From the IMG/VR virus record IMGVR_UViG_2740892039_000008: a stretch of DNA of 18,167 nt; one strand, given 5' to 3'. The stretch's first letter is position 1. The number at the start of each line of letters is the position of its first letter. This DNA comes from a virus. Taxonomy: Duplodnaviria; Heunggongvirae; Uroviricota; Caudoviricetes. Positions 706-18,167 of the stretch are shown here, in pieces. Under the pieces are notes generated by a model. That model did not search any database and had not been told where the DNA came from. It saw only the letters and a program-made list of their open reading frames with translations. The position numbers and the translations under genes were made by a program.

Positions 706-1491
706 TTATGAGTGGTTTTTATTTGATGCTTTGTATTCTAAAACCTTCTTATTGGCGTAAAGGAATTTTGTGTATGACAGGAATATAAATAGACCTGAAA
801 TGAAATAGATTAGGGATATTATTAATAATGTTTTTCTGTGGCTGTTATTATCTTTAATCTCCTGACTTAACCATTCGGAGTCCTCCTCGTTTAGCTGTAA
901 GAGCTTATTGCAGGCGATTGCAGGAAGTGTGTCTGTTACAAAAGTGTTCTGCAGTCTCTTGCAATCGGCAATGCTAAAAGCTTTATAGAACTTATCTGTT
1001 TTATTGTCGGAGAACAAAAGAACCTTGTCATTATAAACATGGTACATCATATTTTTATATGGTATGGCTATGGCATCCTCTACTATGGCAGATTGCTCGT
1101 TGTGTATGCAACATGCGAAGATAATATAAAGAATTCCGGCCAGGACTGCACTCATTGTTTTTGTGATGCATGGCGGTTCTGTTATGTCTCCCCAGAAGCG
1201 AGTAAGGAAAAAATCCGATGTTTTTAGTTTTCCATCAATCAGCCCCTGCTGTATCATTCTCACATCTTCGATGCCTGATACATTGATTCCGTTAAGTATT
1301 TTAAATAGTTGAATGTCGCGCCACTCGCGGTCCAGTCTTTTTAATTTTTTGTCTGAATATCCAAATTTGAAATAATGTGCAATAAGCCTCATAAGGTTAC
1401 TTTTACCAAAGCTAAAAAATGCTAATACTGCAAAGACCAAAAGATACAAAACGATTAGCTCCCACACATTAGTCACATTATAGCTGACCAT
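706..1491 (-). CDS. Hypothetical cargo (moron) membrane protein, 261 aa, three predicted transmembrane helices; function unknown
   Basis: ATG at 1489-1491 (minus) preceded by AAGGAG with a 6-nt spacer. Visibly AT-rich versus flanking phage genes (GC not computed). Opposite orientation to the late operon. Hydrophobic segments at about aa 10-29, 114-131 and 224-244. Occupies the S/V variable locus (orf30 position in P2). Confidence 0.75.
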   Translation of the reverse strand: MVSYNVTNVWELIVLYLLVFAVLAFFSFGKSNLMRLIAHYFKFGYSDKKLKRLDREWRDIQLFKILNGINVSGIEDVRMIQQGLIDGKLKTSDFFLTRFWGDITEPPCITKTMSAVLAGILYIIFACCIHNEQSAIVEDAIAIPYKNMMYHVYNDKVLLFSDNKTDKFYKAFSIADCKRLQNTFVTDTLPAIACNKLLQLNEEDSEWLSQEIKDNNSHRKTLLIISLIYFISGLFIFLSYTKFLYANKKVLEYKASNKNHS

Positions 1492-4000: not shown

Positions 4001-6619
4001 ATGAGCACGAAATTTAAAACCGTTATCACTACTGCCGGAGCCGCGAAGCTGGCAGCCGCTACTGTTCCCGGCGGGAAAAAAGTAAACCTGTCTGCAATGG
4101 CTGTGGGTGACGGTAATGGCCAATTGCCGGTGCCGGATGCCGGTCAGACGAAACTGGTGCATGAAGTCTGGCGTCACGCTCTGAATAAAGTCAGTGTGGA
4201 TAACAAGAATAAAAACTATATCGTGGCTGAACTGGTTGTTCCGCCAGAAGTGGGCGGCTTCTGGATGCGTGAGCTTGGTCTGTATGATGATGCCGGAACA
4301 CTGATTGCGGTATCCAACATGGCAGAAAGCTATAAGCCAGAACTGGCTGAAGGCTCCGGACGTGCGCAGACCTGCCGCATGGTTATTATTCTCAGTAACG
4401 TGGCGTCCGTTGAGCTGAGTATTGATGCCAGCACAGTGATGGCGACGCAGGATTACGTCGATGACAAAATCGCAGAGCATGAGCAGTCCCGCCGCCATCC
4501 TGACGCCACGCTGACAGAGAAAGGTTTTACTCAGTTAAGCAGTGCAACAAACAGCACCAGTGAGTCACTGGCGGCAACGCCAAAAGCGGTCAAGGCTGCG
4601 AATGACAACGCAAATTCACGTCTGGCGAAAAATCAGAACGGTGCAGATATCCAGGATAAATCAGCTTTTCTGGACAATGTTGGCGTTACCAGCCTGACGT
4701 TTATGAAAAACAATGGCGAAATGCCGGTTGATGCTGATCTGAATACGTTTGGTCCTGTTAAGGCTTATTCAGGTATCTGGTCTAAAGCAACATCCACCAA
4801 CGCAACACTGGAGAAAAATTTCCCGGAAGATAATGCTGTCGGTGTGCTTGAGGTTTTTGCTGCCGGCAATTTTGCAGGTACGCAACGCTTTACCACAAGA
4901 GACGGCAATGTATACATGCGTAAACTCGCCAATAAGTGGAATGGCACTGATGGTCCGTGGGGCGTATGGCGTCACACTCAATCAGCGACCCGCCCTTTGA
5001 GTACGACTATAGACCTGAATACGCTTGGAGCCGCCGAGCATCTTGGTTTATGGCGTAACAGTAGCTCGGCTATAGCTTCATATGAACGCAATTATCCAGA
5101 GGAAGGCGGCTTTGCTCAGGGGACGCTTGAGATCCTCGAAGGCGGGAATTATGGAAGAACGCAACGTTATACCACTCGCCGTGGAAATATGTACGTCCGC
5201 TGCCTTGCGGCAAGCTGGGATGCATCAAATCCGCAGTGGGAACCGTGGTTAAGAGTTGGTCATCAGTCAGAGAGTCGTTATTACGACGGGGATTTGAATG
5301 ATGTGACTTCACCAGGTATTTACAGCGTTACAGGTAAAGCGACCAACGGTCCAATACTGGACGGAAACGGCGTGACAGTCCTCGGTATTCTGGAAGTGTT
5401 GAGGCGCTTTGATGGTGTTAACGTATGGCAGCGTTATACAACTGCCGGAACAGGTGCAACCCTTAAAGGTCGCACGTTTGAGCGCGTCTATACCGGCAGC
5501 TCGTGGAGCGAATGGCGGGAAGTCTACACCTCGTATTCACTTCCCCTGAATCTGGGTATCGGCGGTGCAGTGGCAAAGCTCACCAGCCTGGACTGGCAGA
5601 CCCACGACTTTGTGCCGGGCAGTCTGATAACCGTTCGGCTTGATAACATGACCAACATTCCCGACGGTATGGACTGGGGCGTCATTGATGGCAACCTGAT
5701 AAACATCGCAGTTGGTCCGAGTGATGATTCCGGTACGGGGCGCTCAATGCATGTATGGCGCAGCACTGTAAGTAAAGCGAATTACCGCTTTTTTATGGTG
5801 CGTATTTCAGGAAATCCGGGAAGCCGCACGATCACGACAAGACGTGTGCCAATTATCGACGAAGCTCAGACATGGGCGGCGAAACAGACATTCAGCGGTG
5901 GTCTTTCAGGCGAACTGTCCGGCAATGCGGCTACAGCAACAAAGCTGAAAACGGCAAGGACAATTAACGGCGTGAAATTTGACGGCTCGGCAAATATTGA
6001 AGTATTTCCGCCAGGTGTTCCGCTGCCATGGCCATCAGATACACCGCCTGCAGGCTATGCAATCATGCAGGGACAGACGTTTGATAAGGCAGCATATCCG
6101 AAACTGGCTATTGCCTATCCTTCTGGTGTTATTCCAGATATGCGCGGCTGGACAATCAAGGGCAAACCCGCCAGTGGGCGTGCCGTATTGTCACAGGAAC
6201 AGGACGGGATTAAATCGCATACTCACAGCGCCAGTGCGTCAAATACGGACTTAGGAACGAAAACGACCAGTTCATTTGATTACGGGACAAAAACAGTCAG
6301 TACGTTTAACCACGGCACAAAATCAACCAATACTTCTGGCAATCATACACATACCGTCGGTTTTGCTGTGAGCGTGCAATCAGGCGGTGCAGATTATGGT
6401 GTTCCGCGAAGTGATAAAGGTGCTACGACTACAAGTTCATCAGGCAATCATGCACATACAGTCGACATTGGAGCACATAACCATACTGTTGGTATTGGTG
6501 CACATTCACACACTGTTGCTATTGGCTCACACGGGCATTCCATTACCGTAAATGCTACTGGCAATACCGAAAACACCGTCAAAAACATCGCATTTAACTA
6601 TATTGTGAGGCTTGCATAA
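4001..6619 (+). CDS. H: Tail fibre protein H, mosaic: conserved P2-like N-terminus, three internal ~50-aa repeats, His-rich HxH C-terminal tip
   Basis: 872 aa (P2 gpH is about 669 aa by recall). N-terminus [20 protein letters not shown].. is a P2-H-type baseplate-attachment region. C-terminus carries repeated GNHTHTV / [27 protein letters not shown] motifs and a ..NYIVRLA end typical of Tfa-dependent fibres. Confidence 0.9.
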
Positions 6620-7197
6620 TGGCTTTCAGAATGAGTGCAGAAGCACAAACTATCCGCGTTTTCAATTTACTTGATGGAACCAATGAGTTTATTGGCGAAA
6701 GTGATGCATATATTCCGCCGTATACTGGCCTGCCTGCAAACAGTACAGATATTGCACCACCTGATATTCCTGCTGGTTATGCAGCCGTTTTCAATGCAGA
6801 TGAAATGAAATGGGAGTTGATGGAAGATCATCGCGGAAAGACTGTCTACGAAACGAAAACGGGAGCAGCCATTTATATTTCTGAACTTGGCGCATTACCT
6901 CCAGACGTGACAGCCATTTCCCCGGAGGGGGATTATCAGAAATGGAACGGAAATGCGTGGGTGAATGATGAGAATGCAGAGCGTGATGCACTTGTCAGAG
7001 CGGCTGAGTCTCAGAAGAAAGAGCAGATTGCATATGCAGGTGAAATCATTGCCATGCTGCAGGATGCTGTCGATTTAGATATGGCTACCGAGGAAGAAAA
7101 GTTAAGCCTGACACACTGGAAAAAATACCGTGTGCTACTTAATCGCGTTCAGCCGGAAAATGCTCCGGATATAGAATGGCCTGAAATGCCGCAATAA
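6619..7197 (+). CDS. G: Tail fibre assembly protein (chaperone), G position
   Basis: 192 aa. ATG overlaps the H stop (TAATG). C-terminal ..[27 protein letters not shown] resembles the conserved Tfa C-terminal region. Position equals P2 G. Longer than P2 gpG (175 aa by recall), consistent with a swapped H-tip/G module. Confidence 0.8.
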
Positions 7198-7258
7198 ATC
7201 GTATTAGCTCTGGTGTGAGATTACTCATCTATGGCACAGAGTAAAACCTAATCTGACT

Positions 7259-7282
7259 GTCCGCTCTGTGCTAGGAGCGGAC
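7259..7282. repeat. 8-bp inverted repeat hairpin (GTCCGCTC-N8-GAGCGGAC) downstream of G
   Basis: Read from the sequence. No following T-run, so not a canonical intrinsic terminator. Confidence 0.3.
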
Positions 7283-7495
7283 GTGATGCATATCTGTCAC
7301 CAAATTTAATGTGCCACTACAAACAGAGTATATAGTTGAATATTATAGTGCACCCCGGCCTCATGAATATAACGGTGGATTACCGCCGAACGAGTCGGAA
7401 AATAGATACTGGAAAAACTCTAAAATCGAGGCCAGTTTTTGTTGTTCTCTACAATAATAATCGGATTTTCCCATGACAAGTTTAATAGTATTTAG

Positions 7496-8605
7496 GTGCC
7501 TGAAGTGAAGTTGAAGAAGCTATTGATGAAAGTTGTGAAAGTGGTAAAGGAGCAGGTTCTAAGTACCGTTATTTCGGGAATAATAGGCATAGCGGCTACA
7601 GTAGGGCTTTTCCATTTCACTTCACAGCCAATACGATCTGCTGATGTTCGCGAAAAATTAGTTGAAATGGCTCGGGAGTGCATCCAGCAGCAGCTTGCCA
7701 CACATTTGGACTCAGTGGCGTTTGACTCAGTGGCTAGCGAGTCTCTCGATCTAAGCACCTCAAACTCCGTTGTAGTCTACGGAAGAACTGTGAGCACAAA
7801 TGGTGCCCTTAGCCGTTTCCTGATGGTCTTCGAGCCCTCTGGACAGAGTTTGATAGATAAGGTGGTTGGCAGACCTGGATTCTACGATATTGGGTATTGG
7901 GCAATCATCCCAGACGCAGGGGACGACGAGGTTGTGGCTTCTTCAGTAAACATTGAAGACCTCGACAAAGATGGTAACAAGGACATACTAGTCCGCTTAA
8001 AGTCAACTTACGCGGATGGTGTATCCAAAGGGCTTCTTATACTTAAAAAGGATATCCATGATGTATGGCATTTGATGGGGCTTCCATCAATGACAGAGAT
8101 CATGCATTCCATTGCTGCAGGTCAGCCTCCCCAGCCGGAAGGTCTTCACCTTCCACTTCCGGCAATACAATGGTTTAGTAATGACGAAAAACTCAAACCA
8201 AAGTCTGATATCAAACAATATCTTAATTGGGAAATTGACGAAGATAACTTGCAGGTCGCTGATTCCACTGGAAATCATTCTTTTTGGATGTTCAGAAACG
8301 GCACCAAGATAAAAATGTTCGAGAATGGACAAGCCGGCTACAAGCACTTTGGTGTACTGGTCAACATCAATGATGAAGAGGCGATACAGGGAAGGCATCA
8401 TCTCATGGTCAGCTTTTTCAAGATAGAGAATAATAGTTTGGTTCCTGATCCGAATTGGAACTGGGCCTATCCCATGTTCTCTATCGGATTAGAGGATAGC
8501 CAAGAAGTTGAATTAAGTGACATGCAGGAAGCGGGCTTACAAGCTCATGTTTCTGGTAGCTCCGTTTTCGGCCTGACAGAGTTTGGGAAAATGGACTCAG
8601 ATTAA
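7496..8605 (+). CDS. Hypothetical cargo protein at the G/FI (Z/fun) variable locus; 369 aa, N-terminal basic segment plus one predicted transmembrane helix, large C-terminal domain with a DxDxDG-like motif; function unknown
   Basis: GTG start at 7496 (alternative ATG at 7526 preceded by AAGAAG). Hydrophobic helix at about aa 21-41 (VLSTVISGIIGIAATVGLFHF). Motif IEDLDKDGNKD. Visibly lower GC than neighbouring tail genes. Followed by a strong terminator. Confidence 0.7.
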   Translation: MPEVKLKKLLMKVVKVVKEQVLSTVISGIIGIAATVGLFHFTSQPIRSADVREKLVEMARECIQQQLATHLDSVAFDSVASESLDLSTSNSVVVYGRTVSTNGALSRFLMVFEPSGQSLIDKVVGRPGFYDIGYWAIIPDAGDDEVVASSVNIEDLDKDGNKDILVRLKSTYADGVSKGLLILKKDIHDVWHLMGLPSMTEIMHSIAAGQPPQPEGLHLPLPAIQWFSNDEKLKPKSDIKQYLNWEIDEDNLQVADSTGNHSFWMFRNGTKIKMFENGQAGYKHFGVLVNINDEEAIQGRHHLMVSFFKIENNSLVPDPNWNWAYPMFSIGLEDSQEVELSDMQEAGLQAHVSGSSVFGLTEFGKMDSD

Positions 8606-8916
8606 TATTCGCTAACCTTACCAACGAAGAGCAGGTCACAGGTATGGCCTAATTATGTTTTCAGAGGAGTCAGGGCTCAAGAATGCCCCCAGATAAGCCG
8701 TAAATCCTGTAGCGCAAAATCGTCTCAGATGACGCAGAGATATTAAAAACGCCTCAACCTGTTCATCAATTAATTGATAGGTTGAACTGTTAGTTAAACT
8801 TTCACCAGCAGAAAGGTATGAACTTTTTCGACTCGCTCAAAGCTGGCTGTCAGAGCTGATAGCGTTTTGGCTACGTAAATTGTCAGTTGGAAACTGAGCG
8901 AGTACAAATCAGGACG

Positions 8917-8945
8917 GGCGGGCTGATTGCCCGCCTTTTCTTTAT
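8917..8945 (+). terminator. Rho-independent terminator closing the cargo transcription unit
   Basis: GGCGGGC (8917-8923), loop TGATT, GCCCGCC (8929-8935), then TTTTCTTTAT. Confidence 0.6.
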
Positions 8946-8946
8946 C

Positions 8947-9039
8947 TGTTGTTTCATCCACTGACCAGCCAGGTCAAATAGCGTCTCATGCACTGCCCAA
9001 CAGAAAATAGTTGCACCCATTAACCACGGAGTTAAACGG
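8947..9039 (+). promoter_or_regulatory. Candidate P2 late promoter PF with an Ogr-type box, upstream of FI
   Basis: TGTTGTTTCATCCACTGACCA at 8947-8967 (TGT-N12-CCA, one mismatch to TGT-N12-ACA), roughly 55 bp upstream of a plausible start site near 9010-9015. Shares the TGTTGT half-site with the box upstream of V. Confidence 0.35.
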
Positions 9040-10230
9040 ATGAGCGACTATCATCATGGCGTGCAGGTGCTGGAGATTAACGACGGCACCCGCGTCATTT
9101 CCACCGTATCCACCGCCATTGTCGGCATGGTCTGCACGGCCAGCGATGCGGATGCGGAAACCTTCCCCCTCAATAAACCGGTGCTGATTACCAATGTGCA
9201 GAGCGCGATTGCAAAGGCCGGTAAAAAAGGCACGCTGGCGGCATCGTTGCAGGCTATCGCCGACCAGTCAAAACCGGTCACCGTTGTCGTGCGTGTGGAA
9301 GACGGCACCGGCGACGACGAGGAAACGAAACTCGCGCAGACCGTTTCCAATATCATCGGCACCACCGACGAAAACGGTCAGTACACCGGACTGAAAGCCC
9401 TGCTGGCGGCGGAGTCGGTAACTGGTGTTAAACCGCGTATTCTCGGCGTGCCGGGACTGGACACCAAAGAGGTGGCTGTTGCACTGGCATCAGTCTGTCA
9501 GAAGCTGCGTGCTTTCGGGTATATCAGCGCATGGGGATGTAAGACCATTTCCGAGGTGAAAGCCTACCGCCAGAATTTCAGCCAGCGTGAGCTGATGGTC
9601 ATCTGGCCGGATTTCCTCGCATGGGATACGGTCACCAGTACCACCGCCACCGCGTATGCCACCGCCCGTGCGCTGGGTCTGCGCGCTAAAATCGACCAGG
9701 AGCAGGGCTGGCATAAAACGCTGTCCAACGTTGGGGTGAACGGTGTTACCGGCATCAGCGCCTCTGTATTCTGGGATTTGCAGGAGTCCGGCACCGATGC
9801 TGACCTGCTTAACGAGTCAGGCGTCACAACGCTGATTCGCCGCGACGGTTTCCGCTTCTGGGGTAACCGTACCTGCTCCGATGACCCGCTGTTCCTCTTT
9901 GAAAACTACACCCGCACCGCGCAGGTGCTGGCCGACACGATGGCTGAGGCGCACATGTGGGCGGTGGATAAGCCCATCACCGCAACGCTGATTCGCGACA
10001 TCGTTGACGGCATTAATGCCAAATTCCGTGAGCTGAAAACAAACGGCTATATCGTGGATGCGACCTGCTGGTTCAGCGAAGAATCCAACGATGCGGAAAC
10101 CCTCAAGGCCGGAAAACTGTATATCGACTACGACTATACCCCGGTGCCTCCTCTTGAAAACCTGACCCTGCGCCAGCGTATTACCGATAAATACCTGGCA
10201 AATCTGGTCACCTCGGTTAACAGCAATTAA
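9040..10230 (+). CDS. FI: Contractile tail sheath protein FI
   Basis: 396 aa, as in P2 gpFI. GGAG Shine-Dalgarno. Followed 12 nt later by FII. Confidence 0.9.
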   Translation: MSDYHHGVQVLEINDGTRVISTVSTAIVGMVCTASDADAETFPLNKPVLITNVQSAIAKAGKKGTLAASLQAIADQSKPVTVVVRVEDGTGDDEETKLAQTVSNIIGTTDENGQYTGLKALLAAESVTGVKPRILGVPGLDTKEVAVALASVCQKLRAFGYISAWGCKTISEVKAYRQNFSQRELMVIWPDFLAWDTVTSTTATAYATARALGLRAKIDQEQGWHKTLSNVGVNGVTGISASVFWDLQESGTDADLLNESGVTTLIRRDGFRFWGNRTCSDDPLFLFENYTRTAQVLADTMAEAHMWAVDKPITATLIRDIVDGINAKFRELKTNGYIVDATCWFSEESNDAETLKAGKLYIDYDYTPVPPLENLTLRQRITDKYLANLVTSVNSN

Positions 10231-15818: not shown

Positions 15819-18167
15819 ATGCTGAGTTTATACGAAAAGATAAAGATAAGGCTGATAATTTTATTTTTATTGGCAGCATTGTCATTTATTGGTCTTTTTT
15901 TCATCATTAACTATCAACTGGTATCGGAACGCGCGGTAAAACGTGCCGATAGCCGCTTTGAACTTATTCAGAAAAACGTTGGCTATTTCTTTAAAGATAT
16001 TGAACGTTCGGCCCTGACATTAAAGGACTCACTGTATTTATTAAAAAATACAGAGGAGATTCAACGTGCCGTGATTCTGAAAATGGAAATGATGCCATTT
16101 TTAGACTCGGTGGGACTGGTACTTGATGATAATAAATATTATCTCTTTTCGCGGAGGGCGAATGATAAAATCGTTGTTTATCATCAGGAACAAGTAAATG
16201 GACCGCTTGTCGACGAGTCAGGGCGGGTTATTTTTGCCGATTTTAACCCATCGAAACGACCGTGGTCGATGGCTTCAGATGACTCTAACAACAGCTGGAA
16301 CCCGGCATACAATTGCTTTGATCGTCCGGGTAAAAAATGTATCTCTTTTACGCTACACATCAACGGCAAAGATCATGATTTGTTAGCGGTAGATAAAATT
16401 CATGTCGATTTAAACTGGCGATATCTGAACGAGTATCTTGATCACATCAGCGCTAATGATGAAGTTCTATTTTTAAAGCAAGGTCATGAGATCATTGCTA
16501 AGAATCAACTCGCTCGTGAAAAATTGATTATTTATAATAGCGAAGGTAATTATAATATTATTGATTCTGTCGATACGGAATATATTGAAAAAACATCAGC
16601 GGTGCCAAACAACGCATTATTCGAAATCTATTTTTATTATCCTGGTGGTAATTTATTGAACGCATCAGATAAACTTTTTTATCTGCCGTTTGCTTTCATT
16701 ATTATCGTATTGCTGGTGGTTTATTTAATGACCACTCGAGTTTTCCGTCGTCAATTTTCTGAAATGACAGATTTGGTCAATACGCTGGCGTTTTTGCCTG
16801 ACTCTACGGATCAAATCGAGGCCCTGAAGATTCGTGAAGGCGATGCGAAAGAGATTATCAGCATCAAAAATTCGATCGCGGAAATGAAAGATGCTGAAAT
16901 TGAACGGGCAAATAAATTGCTCTCGCTGATCTCTTACGATCAGGAAAGCGGTTTTATTAAAAATATGGCGATTATTGAGTCCAACAATAATCAGTATCTG
17001 GCTGTGGGGATCATCAAACTGTGTGGTCTGGAAGCTGTGGAAGCGGTGTTTGGTGTTGATGAACGCAATAAAATCGTCAGGAAATTGTGTCAGCGAATTG
17101 CCGAGAAATATGCGCAATGCTGCGATATCGTGACATTTAATGCCGATCTCTATTTACTCCTGTGCCGGGAAAATGTACAGACGTTTACCCGTAAGATAGC
17201 GACGGTAAACGATTTTGACAGCAGTTTTGGCTACCGCAATCTGCGCATCCATAAGTCTGCTATTTGTGAACCTTTGCAGGGGGAAAACGCCTGGAGTTAC
17301 GCAGAAAAGCTGAAACTGGCGATTTCCAGTATCCGCAACCATATGTTCTCAGAGTTTATTTTCTGTGATGATGCGAAACTCAACGAAATAGAAGAGAATA
17401 TCTGGATTGCGCGTAATATTCGCCATGCAATGGAAATTGGCGAACTATTCCTGGTCTATCAACCGATTGTTGATATTAACACCCGCACCATTTTGGGCGC
17501 GGAGGCGTTGTGCCGTTGGGTGTCTGCGGAGCGGGGGATTATTTCACCGCTGAAGTTCATTACCATTGCTGAAGATATCGGGTTTATCAATGAGCTGGGC
17601 TATCAAATTATTAAAACCGCGATGGGTGAATTCAGACATTTTAGTCAGCGTGCGTCGCTGAAGGATGATTTCTTACTGCATATTAATGTTTCGCCCTGGC
17701 AGTTAAACGAACCACACTTTCATGAGCGTTTTACTACCATCATGAAAGAAAATGGCCTGAAGGCGAACAGCCTTTGTGTTGAGATCACCGAAACCGTGAT
17801 CGAGCGAATTAATGAACATTTCTATCTCAATATTGAACAACTGCGTAAACAAGGGGTACGGGTATCGATTGATGACTTTGGCACCGGTTTGTCAAACCTG
17901 AAACGTTTTTATGAAATTAATCCAGACAGTATAAAGGTGGATTCGCAATTTACCGGCGATATTTTCGGTACTGCGGGAAAAATTGTGCGCATTATTTTCG
18001 ATCTGGCACGCTATAACCGGATCCCGGTGATTGCGGAAGGCGTAGAGAGCGAAGACGTTGCGCGTGAATTAATCAAATTAGGATGTGTTCAGGCTCAGGG
18101 GTATCTGTACCAGAAACCCATGCCATTCTCCGCCTGGGATAAAAGTGGAAAATTAGTAAAAGAGTAG
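15819..18167 (+). CDS. pdeI: Host membrane-bound c-di-GMP phosphodiesterase (two TM helices, periplasmic domain, degenerate GGDEF-like region, C-terminal EAL domain); probably PdeI (YliE)
   Basis: 782 aa, the length I recall for E. coli PdeI/YliE. TM helices at about aa 10-30 and 285-305. EAL signature GAEALCRW and DDFGTG motif in the C-terminal domain. Lower-GC, host-like codon usage. Gene symbol from recall, not a search. Confidence 0.6.
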   Translation: MLSLYEKIKIRLIILFLLAALSFIGLFFIINYQLVSERAVKRADSRFELIQKNVGYFFKDIERSALTLKDSLYLLKNTEEIQRAVILKMEMMPFLDSVGLVLDDNKYYLFSRRANDKIVVYHQEQVNGPLVDESGRVIFADFNPSKRPWSMASDDSNNSWNPAYNCFDRPGKKCISFTLHINGKDHDLLAVDKIHVDLNWRYLNEYLDHISANDEVLFLKQGHEIIAKNQLAREKLIIYNSEGNYNIIDSVDTEYIEKTSAVPNNALFEIYFYYPGGNLLNASDKLFYLPFAFIIIVLLVVYLMTTRVFRRQFSEMTDLVNTLAFLPDSTDQIEALKIREGDAKEIISIKNSIAEMKDAEIERANKLLSLISYDQESGFIKNMAIIESNNNQYLAVGIIKLCGLEAVEAVFGVDERNKIVRKLCQRIAEKYAQCCDIVTFNADLYLLLCRENVQTFTRKIATVNDFDSSFGYRNLRIHKSAICEPLQGENAWSYAEKLKLAISSIRNHMFSEFIFCDDAKLNEIEENIWIARNIRHAMEIGELFLVYQPIVDINTRTILGAEALCRWVSAERGIISPLKFITIAEDIGFINELGYQIIKTAMGEFRHFSQRASLKDDFLLHINVSPWQLNEPHFHERFTTIMKENGLKANSLCVEITETVIERINEHFYLNIEQLRKQGVRVSIDDFGTGLSNLKRFYEINPDSIKVDSQFTGDIFGTAGKIVRIIFDLARYNRIPVIAEGVESEDVARELIKLGCVQAQGYLYQKPMPFSAWDKSGKLVKE

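Follow-up and report, generated by a model that had tools for sequence, protein, structure and literature searches.

Superinfection exclusion proteins of the membrane or periplasm, of the kind carried by prophages, include Imm and Sp of T4, SieA of P22, Cor of phi80 and HK022, and Llp of T5. In P2-like phages the Z/fun slot is variable and enriched in defence genes, among them fun and three validated PD systems (Vassallo 2022, PMC9519451). The variability and defence enrichment of this slot are also reported in bioRxiv 10.1101/2024.10.15.618418 and PMC13586616, and the former describes it as mixed-purpose. A further mobile-element system, the PICI-encoded 'HEPN-TM' defence system (Fillol-Salom et al. 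2022), is mentioned in a review (PMC12948488). Here we analysed a stretch of 18,167 nucleotides from a virus of the Caudoviricetes (IMG/VR record IMGVR_UViG_2740892039_000008; hereafter the window), in which this slot is occupied by a gene for a protein of 359 amino acids (aa). Our best guess, to which we give a probability of roughly 40%, is that the protein acts as an anti-phage factor at the cell envelope.

In this P2-like prophage, the interval between the tail-fibre and tail-sheath genes (G and FI) is the variable Z/fun slot. The preliminary description had taken this position for a variable cargo slot, and the comparison bears this out, as each phage carries different, unrelated genes there: fun(Z) on the minus strand in P2, orf44 in Wphi, ORF1 in P2-EC58 and other genes in P2DC1. 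The AT-rich character of the insert was also confirmed, with a G+C content of 0.40-0.45 in the interval against 0.57 for FI, FII and T. Regarding its extent, about 1.84 kb of inserted DNA had been proposed. Foreign DNA is present, but the cargo covers only approximately 7285-8831 (about 1.55 kb), because the flanking segments 7174-7284 and 8832-9039 are conserved P2 backbone. Both arms share 87-94% identity with Wphi, P2-EC58 and P2DC1. The left arm (7174-7284, plus strand) consists of the end of gene G, with its stop codon at 7195-7197, and about 87 bp of following sequence; it is 86-88% identical to P2-EC58 (7-115), Wphi and P2DC1. P2-like sequences all align up to about 7284 and then diverge at once. 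This arm corresponds to the 'left inverted repeat' of the GenBank records of the Z region (repeat annotation in AJ512683). Considered as true inverted repeats of one another, the two arms of the window gave only 7-nt chance matches. A match to Rfam IS009 at 7000-7160, inside gene G, was also rejected (36.6 bits against a gathering score of 117).

The right arm (8832-9039, plus strand; 92-94% identity to Wphi, P2, L-413C and others) contains an intrinsic terminator and the region of the late promoter P_F. The terminator hairpin, GGGCGGGC-TGATT-GCCCGCC, lies at 8916-8936, has eight pairs of which seven are G-C, and is followed by TTTTCTTT. Alignment to the annotated P2 reference places the P_F activator site at about 8947-8972 and the start of transcription at about 9014. 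A strong terminator at 8917-8945 had been thought to insulate the cargo, and FI to keep a late promoter of its own. The hairpin with its T-run and the promoter region are both there, but as parts of the conserved backbone arm they are present regardless of the cargo. Likewise, the roughly 430 bp of non-coding DNA noted after the gene measures 434 bp and is a composite of about 226 bp of cassette tail and 208 bp of P2 backbone. A 55-aa minus-strand ORF annotated by RefSeq at 8794-8961 is probably spurious; its sequence overlaps both the terminator and conserved backbone.

The cargo has been acquired horizontally and takes the form of a cassette with a characteristic 22-nt hairpin at either border. 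An 'L-type' border hairpin, TCCGCT-CTGTGCTAGG-AGCGGA (7260-7281, plus strand), pairs in RNA folding and marks the left edge of both slot and cassette. A 22-nt hairpin of the same type occurs at the left end of the two-gene cassette in non-P2 contexts (6902-6923 in loci L003 and L005), and the flanks of these two loci diverge just outside it. On the right, the sequence TTTCGACTCGCTCAAAGCTGGC (8826-8851, plus strand) occupies the position of a degenerate 'R-type' hairpin, which is intact in relatives as TCCGCT-TCTCGCTCAY-AGCGGA (9298-9319 in L003 and L005; 4653-4674 in L013). L and R hairpins are the same in kind across unrelated contexts, the flanks diverging exactly outside them; literature searches for the hairpin sequences returned no match. 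Other cassettes bounded by such hairpins carry SIR2_2, AbiJ_NTD4, HEPN_LA2681 and HNH_2. Within the borders of the present cassette (all on the plus strand), a leader remnant at 7258-7322, which in relatives is found about 115-185 bp upstream of a gene for a 245-aa protein, matches L003 (6900-6970), L005 (6901-6970), L020 (948-1000) and L025 (4903-4971) with 74-83% identity by blastn. Cassette intergenic DNA with the ribosome-binding region follows at 7453-7525, as delimited by the alignment of eight loci. Downstream of the cargo gene is a non-coding 3' tail (8606-8831), whose homology to L020, L003, L013, L008 and L026 runs to 8823-8843 and which contains a weak hairpin at 8633-8650.

The fuller form of the cassette consists of the 245-aa gene (gene 1) followed by the 359-aa gene (gene 2). 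All of the closest relatives (79-91% identity; L020-L023, L003-L006 and L013) have the 245-aa gene about 160-180 bp upstream, in the same hairpin-bounded cassette. The 'single-gene module' first put forward for this locus is thus a secondary state, in which gene 1 has been deleted beside an IS3 remnant. In its place there is the C-terminal fragment of an IS3-family transposase (7323-7457, plus strand), seen in the translation and also annotated by RefSeq as a pseudogene at the equivalent site of NZ_CP015085 ('IS3 family transposase, incomplete, missing N-terminus'). An apparent right IS end, ...CTCTACA, is located at about 7453, where homology to the cassette resumes. In the window, the leader and all sequence from 72 bp before gene 2 onwards are retained, with the IS3 fragment filling the gap; the roughly 300 bp before the gene are therefore more than a plain spacer. 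Gene 1 was lost through an IS3-family insertion and a deletion next to it, and the 359-aa gene was left intact. The prophage lineage lacking gene 1 is found in ST131-type strains of E. coli, in E. albertii and in E. marmotae.

The cargo gene (7526-8605, plus strand) encodes RefSeq protein WP_001599801.1, a member of phrog_15038. The plus-strand ORF at 7496-8605 that had been reported as encoding 369 aa was recovered, but its start was not: GTG 7496 merely gives the longest ORF, and the conserved ATG at 7526 yields 359 aa. This start is supported by phrog_15038, which covers aa 11-369 of the long ORF, and by the length of the RefSeq protein (359 aa). A GTG at 7505 is a possible alternative, although in one relative this position shows GAG and a 1-nt gap. 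Across eight loci, 359 codons align without gaps, in agreement with the ATG start, and dN/dS ranges from 0.13 to 0.26; judged from this conservation, the gene is real and under purifying selection.

The exact protein is present on at least 997 contigs, and the gene is widespread within ST131, an extraintestinal pathogenic lineage. The 1949 complete E. coli genomes that showed some match to the interval mostly match just the conserved P2 arm, and only 52 of them have the whole insert. Phage records match only the conserved 207-bp arm, and the insert has no counterpart in P2, Wphi, L-413C or most P2-like prophages. Relatives are also found in non-phage elements, namely integrative islands and a conjugative element. 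These data bear on the idea that the protein is a virion or tail assembly component of P2-like phages, for which one could cite its place between tail genes, on the same strand and with no terminator after G. This explanation is effectively refuted: because the insert is rare among E. coli genomes and its relatives occur in non-phage elements, the cargo gene is not a P2 structural component. The proposed check for a component common to all P2-like phages accordingly came out negative, and the foreign, AT-rich composition and the absence of a structural annotation in PHROG also argue against such a role. The family as a whole is rare (about 70 clusters) and unnamed; it is mobile, with members in P2, lambdoid prophages, integrative islands and a conjugative element, and has no fixed partner gene. 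A literature search for the protein accession gave no match. The 261-aa protein encoded downstream in L020 is unrelated to the 261-aa ORF of the window (706-1491).

Because gene 1 of the cassette is missing, the copy in the window could be inert. The functional unit would then be the two-gene cassette, either a sensor/effector or a toxin/antitoxin pair of the 245-aa protein, which has a HEPN-like motif, and the membrane protein, and the remaining gene would be a functionless relic. We regard this as unlikely, and equally so the accompanying proposal that the gene looks intact only since the deletion is recent and the lineage clonal. It is favoured by the presence of the 245-aa gene in all the closest relatives, and by the retention of the leader in the window where gene 1 has given way to the IS3 fragment. 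The ribosome-binding region reads GAAGAAG here and GAAGGAG in relatives, a weakened Shine-Dalgarno sequence, and a crude scan of the plus strand from 7198 to 7526 found no sigma-70-like promoter. In addition, the copies lacking gene 1 are nearly identical to one another (dS 0.013 between E. coli and E. albertii), too similar for selection after the deletion to be read from them. More distant family members speak against a relic, as the 359-aa gene is intact and the partner absent in L007, L008-L012, L016, L018, L026, L027 and L029. In Pantoea sp. B65 (L025) the partner is frameshifted and the 359-aa gene beside it is intact, with dN/dS of about 0.2. On 39 E. coli plasmids, moreover, the partner family is found next to a GIY-YIG nuclease and without the 359-aa gene. 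Neither protein matches a toxin-antitoxin or defence model: the 245-aa protein has an RNIMAH (RNxxxH, HEPN-like) motif but no Pfam HEPN match, and no PADLOC or toxin-antitoxin model matched it, so its HEPN assignment is one of motif only. As far as the review's description of the PICI 'HEPN-TM' system allows a comparison, the ancestral cassette resembles it in pairing an RNxxxH (HEPN-like) protein with a transmembrane (TM) protein on a mobile element. It differs in that the window has no adjacent HEPN-domain gene and the 245-aa protein of the relatives is HEPN-like by motif alone.

Regarding expression, the terminator scan found none between G and the cargo gene. Because no terminator separates the two, transcription of the late V operon probably extends into the cargo gene as well. 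Such read-through is at least as likely as expression in the lysogen, which the exclusion idea requires.

The protein was described beforehand as having a basic N-terminus and a single TM helix, and both features hold. A Lys-rich N-terminus (MKVVKVVKEQ) precedes one hydrophobic segment at aa 11-31 (7556-7618, plus strand), with a mean Kyte-Doolittle value of 2.1 over 19 residues and no other segment above 1.4; in the AlphaFold model, residues 2-32 form one helix. A cleaved signal peptide or a lipoprotein was considered and rejected, given a hydrophobic stretch of about 20 residues and the lack of an N-terminal cysteine. The layout of anchor and domain is kept in 31 family members. The DxDxDG-like motif noted earlier was confirmed as DLDKDGNKD, an FG-GAP-type calcium-loop motif at aa 145-153 (7958-7984, plus strand) recognised by conservation and by the family profile. 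Close homologues have it unchanged, and in the wider family D145 and G150 show at least 90% conservation. It is on exactly this segment that the family profile matches true multi-repeat FG-GAP_3 proteins, with 5-13 repeats matched in each. AlphaFold modelling (pLDDT 90, pTM 0.83) gave a beta-rich ectodomain with only partial likeness to FG-GAP propellers and to PliI. The protein is predicted to be a type II (N-in, C-out) inner-membrane protein, with periplasmic blades resembling those of an FG-GAP propeller, one calcium-binding loop and no catalytic motif. The predicted topology relies on a weak positive-inside charge bias and on the fact that FG-GAP calcium loops are usually extracytoplasmic.

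The earlier description of the protein as uncharacterised was upheld, as it matches no family of characterised proteins. There was no match in Pfam and only a sub-threshold one in NCBIfam (E 0.13, far below the cut-off). No defence-protein HMM of PADLOC-DB v2.0.0, PD-* models included, matched the 369-aa ORF at E<=0.1. A profile search of PDB sequences gave nothing below E 0.67, and Foldseek found no match among viral structures. The only PHROG match was phrog_15038, of unknown function and with no structural annotation. The protein shares the DxDxDGxxD calcium-binding loop with FG-GAP/VCBS propeller proteins such as integrin alpha and CRTAC1 (PF01839, PF13517), but these have tandem repeats and a closed, usually seven-bladed, beta-propeller, which is not the case here. 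None of ten family members reached the gathering score of Pfam FG-GAP or FG-GAP_3 (best E 0.14, in two of them). PliI, the periplasmic inhibitor of I-type lysozyme (PDB 3od9), differs in its low identity (about 10%), and the present protein has a membrane anchor and an extra C-terminal beta domain.

The similarity to P2 Fun(Z) and other Z/fun cargo, including the PD systems (Vassallo 2022), lies in the slot and its surroundings: the same G-FI site with the same conserved arms, filled by AT-rich foreign DNA that is non-essential and variable between phages. Fun(Z) is encoded on the opposite strand and has 528 aa, whereas the gene in the window is on the plus strand and encodes 359 aa. No homology to Fun(Z) (NP_046777) was found at E<=10, either by blastp or by hmmsearch with the family profile, and no sequence relationship to Wphi gp44, P2-EC58 ORF1 or the P2DC1 genes was seen. 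The analogy that had been drawn with T5 exclusion by P2 Z/fun is consequently positional only, because the protein is unrelated to Fun(Z). Superinfection exclusion proteins are also single genes of mobile elements, and the present protein may resemble them in its predicted inner-membrane location, with most of the chain on the periplasmic side, and has no enzymatic motif. It differs from them in that no homology was detected and that Imm, Sp, Cor and Llp are all much smaller.

In an anti-phage role, the protein would bind or sense an incoming phage component (tail tip, ejection protein or muralytic protein), or an envelope protein that the phage needs. Binding would then block genome entry, as in superinfection exclusion, or trigger envelope damage. 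The reported defence enrichment of the slot (PMC9519451) is consistent with this reading, as are the neighbours of the relatives, which adjoin PADLOC-recognised defence genes in several independent contexts. These include an HEC-05/GmrSD-like protein (E 2e-92), an EcoRII-type restriction enzyme (E 1e-183), PDC-S06 (E 2e-212) and an HNH restriction-type protein; DUF4238, PLDc_2 and a Dcm methylase were found as further neighbours, and DUF4238 has been validated against T7 (Rousset 2022). The selection on the single gene and its integrity without the partner in many contexts also favour an anti-phage role. On the other side are the absence of homology to any known defence protein in PADLOC v2 and PHROG, the missing gene 1, the weakened Shine-Dalgarno sequence and the absence of a detected promoter upstream. 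Some contexts are moreover not defence-related: metabolic genes lie all round the family member of L029, and in ATCC 25922 a hairpin junction flanks an iron-uptake operon.

The protein could instead be a non-defence envelope accessory (a moron), serving to inhibit lysozyme or another muralytic enzyme in the manner of PliI, to tolerate envelope stress, or to interact with other cells or the animal host; we consider this somewhat unlikely. FG-GAP domains are typically adhesion or ligand-binding modules, and cargo unrelated to defence is also found in hairpin-bounded cassettes, for instance a TonB-dependent receptor together with an ABC transporter, or a Lactamase_B-family protein with a LysR regulator. 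The mixed purpose ascribed to the Z slot (bioRxiv 10.1101/2024.10.15.618418) and the spread of the gene in ST131 point the same way. Nevertheless, none of ten family members matched Pfam PliI (PF16743) at E<=10, the structural match to PliI spans one domain only, and the neighbours are more often of defence type than of virulence type.

The protein could also act in defence by another route, as an abortive-infection membrane effector that would respond to infection by damaging the inner membrane, thereby killing or arresting the cell, and not by excluding entry; such a mode of action has been proposed for other TM defence effectors. For TM proteins of hotspot systems, a role as suicide effector is generally assumed (Rousset 2022), and the link of the cassette to a possible HEPN-like protein would fit modules of this kind. 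We hold it improbable, since a single TM helix with a large, folded, acidic ectodomain is unlike small pore-forming effectors, and the approximately 10 residues before the helix leave no cytoplasmic sensing domain. The anti-phage reading can also be taken further, to a new class of single-gene envelope anti-phage factor built on a type II membrane-anchored, calcium-binding FG-GAP-propeller fragment, which would recognise a component of the incoming phage in the periplasm, and spread by hairpin-recognising L/R cassette recombination. In this extended form, which is speculative and which we think quite unlikely, the L/R cassettes would form a system not characterised before, taking defence genes and other cargo from one P2 slot, lambdoid prophage or genomic island to another.

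Should the gene prove a relic or a non-defence moron, it would be an ordinary example of hotspot cargo. In any case, the hairpin-bounded cassettes offer a testable handle on the exchange of defence and other cargo among P2 slots, lambdoid prophages and genomic islands, which a recent large survey termed unexplained (PMC13586616). As an anti-phage factor, the protein would represent a defence family unrelated to the catalogued systems and acting in the periplasm, where few defences are known, and its carriage by the pandemic ST131 lineage would have a bearing on host range in phage therapy.

The window covers the late (tail) region of a P2-like prophage. Pfam assigns tail fibre H to 4001-6619, fibre assembly protein G to 6619-7197 and sheath FI to 9040-10230, and RefSeq annotates the identical region of E. 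coli O25b:H4 in the order lysis genes, R, S, V, W, J, I, H, G, insert, FI, FII, E, E', T, U, D, ogr. As the preliminary description had stated, the interval between G and FI is AT-rich, with a G+C content of 0.40-0.45 over ~7200-8900 versus 0.57 for FI, FII and T. The insert had been placed at 7198-9039; foreign DNA does lie between the two genes, but the outer ends are P2 backbone. By blastn against fetched P2-like sequences, 7174-7284 and 8832-9039 are 86-94% identical to Wphi, P2-EC58 and P2DC1, and in alignments including the P2 reference all the phages part right after ~7284 and rejoin at ~8832. Because these flanks are shared backbone, the foreign DNA spans ~7285-8831. Aligning the interval also bore out the proposal of a variable cargo slot, occupied by fun(Z) on the minus strand in P2, orf44 in Wphi and other genes in P2-EC58 and P2DC1; the 359-aa protein encoded here is unrelated to any of these slot genes. 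The slot is described as a second defence-enriched locus of P2-like phages, where fun and three validated systems are found (PMC9519451), and has also been termed a mixed-purpose hotspot (10.1101/2024.10.15.618418; PMC13586616). The other hotspot, the gpA-gpQ interval, is the one analysed by Rousset 2022, whose supplements do not contain the accession of the 359-aa protein. Some part of the interval, mostly a conserved arm alone, is matched in 1949 of 5426 complete E. coli genomes, and the whole insert, at ~100% identity, in only 52. An O25b:H4 strain is among the matches listed for the interval, and the 90%-identity protein cluster includes proteins named from O25b:H4-ST131. E. albertii NBRC 107761 has the same insert in the same slot at 98.75% identity.

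The ORF at 7496-8605 is present as claimed, but we take the gene as 7526-8605, encoding 359 rather than 369 residues, because phrog_15038 covers only residues 11-369 of the long ORF, the RefSeq call is a 359-aa protein (WP_001599801.1) and eight homologous loci align over exactly 359 ungapped codons from the ATG equivalent to 7526. In some relatives, translation might instead begin at the position of the in-frame GTG at 7505, which has AGGTG six bases 5' of it; Pantoea sp. B65 has ATG there, and the related locus L013 has GAG and a 1-nt gap. Judging from dN/dS values of 0.13-0.26 in all pairs, the gene is real and under selection.

This gene had been presented as a single-gene cargo, which proved to be a secondary condition: the window carries a truncated two-gene cassette. 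In the closest relatives, at 91% (L020-23), 82% (L003-06) and 79% (L013) identity, a 245-aa gene lies ~160-180 bp upstream (L003 7086-7823; L013 2360-3178; L020 1116-1853), and homology between the window and these loci begins at 7453, 72 bp ahead of the ATG, and extends to 8823-8843. A leader block at 7258-7322 matches DNA upstream of the 245-aa gene in relatives. In the window that gene is replaced by the C-terminal part of an IS3-family transposase (7323-7457, a RefSeq pseudogene) ending in ...CTCTACA, where cassette homology restarts. Because this remnant separates the leader from the block beginning at 7453, we conclude that an IS3-family element entered between the two genes, after which a deletion took out the first gene and most of the element. 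The cassette ends are 22-nt hairpins of two types with a common stem. The left-end L hairpin, TCCGCT-YWGTGCCAGR-AGCGGA, lies at 7260-7281 in the window and at 6902-6923 in both L003, a CP4-57-like island, and L005, from another context; the right-end R hairpin, TCCGCT-TCTCGCTCAY-AGCGGA, lies at 9298-9319 in these two loci and is degenerate in the window (~8826-8851). The sequences of L003 and L005 part exactly outside the hairpins, and L005 contains two tandem cassettes 18 bp apart. The L hairpin falls inside the sequence that GenBank AJ512683 labels as the 'left inverted repeat' of P2; a literature search found no text quoting either hairpin sequence.

Hairpin-bounded cassettes were also observed in lambdoid prophage contigs, CP4-57-like islands and other islands, as well as in the P2 Z slot, with further hairpin sites in L005 (4747-4768, 6862-6883) and in two other loci, L041 (7128, 12602, 12644) and L042 (1098, 5958, 6000). 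The cargo in lambdoid prophage contigs is SIR2_2, AbiJ_NTD4, HEPN_LA2681, or HNH_2 accompanied by an IS110 transposase; a Lactamase_B-family protein together with a LysR regulator is the cargo of another cassette. Tandem cassettes are sometimes joined as an R-18 bp-L junction, and junction-like sequence occurs in 750 of the 5426 complete E. coli genomes. In ATCC 25922 an iron-uptake operon adjoins this sequence, and the cassettes are therefore not exclusively defensive.

With its partner deleted, the 359-aa gene might be an inert remnant of a two-gene system, a reading that we rank third and regard as unlikely. In Pantoea sp. B65 the 245-aa partner is frameshifted and the 359-aa gene intact, and more distant members (L007, L008-12, L016, L018, L026, L027 and L029) have no adjacent partner. 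Conversely, a partner homologue (~80% DNA identity) occurs without the 359-aa gene on plasmids in 39 E. coli genomes (NZ_CP139678 148875-149603; L044 4001-4729), directly 3' of a GIY-YIG nuclease gene. Taken together, these arrangements show the two genes to be separable modules. With 16 bp between them, the GIY-YIG gene and the partner homologue may form a two-gene module of their own. An RNIMAH motif in the partner recalls HEPN (Rx4H), a likeness without profile support, and the partner has no match in Pfam, PADLOC or PDB.

Regarding expression, a hairpin at 8916-8936 followed by TTTTCTTT forms a good intrinsic terminator, as had been noted. However, it lies in the right arm, the conserved backbone beyond the slot, and so does not belong to the cargo. 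The late promoter attributed to FI likewise maps there by alignment to the annotated P2 reference (P_F activator site ~8947-8972, transcription start ~9014), whatever the cargo. Both thus belong to the backbone common to all P2-like phages. On the plus strand between the G stop codon and the 359-aa gene we found no terminator-like or sigma-70-like site, and late V-operon transcripts probably read through the gene up to the backbone terminator; the V-operon terminator of P2 is located within that phage's own cargo. The Shine-Dalgarno before ATG 7526 is GAAGAAG, where all close relatives have GAAGGAG, and the start site and translation efficiency of this copy are uncertain. A 55-aa hypothetical protein called by RefSeq at 8794-8961 (minus strand; WP_023908562.1) is probably not a real gene, as it overlaps the cassette/backbone junction and the terminator hairpin.

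Elsewhere in the window, a second AT-rich insert (G+C ~0.38) between S and V houses, on the opposite strand, a 261-aa ORF with a hydrophobic N-terminus (706-1491, minus; phrog_2407, function unassigned) that has no Pfam, PADLOC or NCBIfam match. It is a candidate cargo gene of a different P2 slot; the insert is missing from an otherwise near-identical E. albertii prophage. An Rfam IS009 match at 7000-7160 (plus), inside the 3' part of G, was rejected as an RNA gene: its score of 36.6 bits (E 2.4e-6) is below the gathering score of 117, and the match is probably due to tail-fibre-assembly sequence of prophages included in the Rfam seed. After ogr, an AT-rich CHASE9-EAL gene of the cyclic-di-GMP phosphodiesterase type (15819-18167, plus) matches phrog_22021 over its full length; in E. 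coli O25b:H4, yegQ comes next after this prophage region (compare L001 17718-19079). Either the prophage occupies different attachment sites or its right end carries further cargo.

The 359-aa protein was correctly described as uncharacterised: Pfam, PADLOC and PDB sequences gave no match, NCBIfam only a sub-threshold one (E 0.13), and a full-text literature search for WP_001599801.1 returned nothing. The predicted basic N-terminus and single membrane helix were confirmed as MKVVKVVKEQ followed by one hydrophobic segment (aa 11-31), and the DxDxDG-like motif DLDKDGNKD as aa 145-153. A word-indexed protein search yielded 15 clusters and an exhaustive profile search 72 representatives at E<=1e-3, ~35 of them sharing the layout at full length (340-420 aa). 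Of 185,579 species-representative genomes, those of E. albertii and two Pantoea alone have a close relative. AlphaFold, given a 31-sequence alignment, produced a model (pLDDT 90, pTM 0.83) in which two helices, one N-terminal (2-32) and the next at 38-57, precede two beta-rich regions (61-185 and 239-320) with a linker between them. No family member reaches significance for FG-GAP in Pfam; the family profile matches, on segment 132-178, long multi-repeat proteins that are bona fide FG-GAP_3/FG-GAP proteins. We take the modelled ectodomain to be a beta domain resembling a propeller fragment; it would have one FG-GAP calcium loop and, in agreement with the earlier reading, no catalytic motif. 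Calcium loops of this type are usually extracytoplasmic, which with the Lys-rich N-terminus points to an N-in, C-out topology. A structural role is excluded.

Among the neighbours of relatives, PADLOC identifies a GmrSD-like HEC-05 protein, an EcoRII-type restriction enzyme, PDC-S06 and an HNH restriction-type protein, and Pfam DUF4238, PLDc_2, Dcm methylases, NgoMIV and a DndB-like protein. One relative lies in a metabolic gene context. The likeliest single reading, though a tentative one, is an anti-phage role at the envelope, with a probability of about 0.4. A non-defence envelope function, which we place second, is possible if rather doubtful; an abortive-infection effector, ranked fourth, seems improbable. 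Two points are solid: a known variable slot holds a hairpin-bounded foreign cassette, cut to one intact gene by an IS3-associated deletion, and the product of that gene is a membrane-anchored, FG-GAP-like member of an undescribed, rare and mobile family. Overall, the known hotspot has many such hypothetical genes; the cassette structure is interesting, and the confident fold without close analogues counts in favour of the protein.
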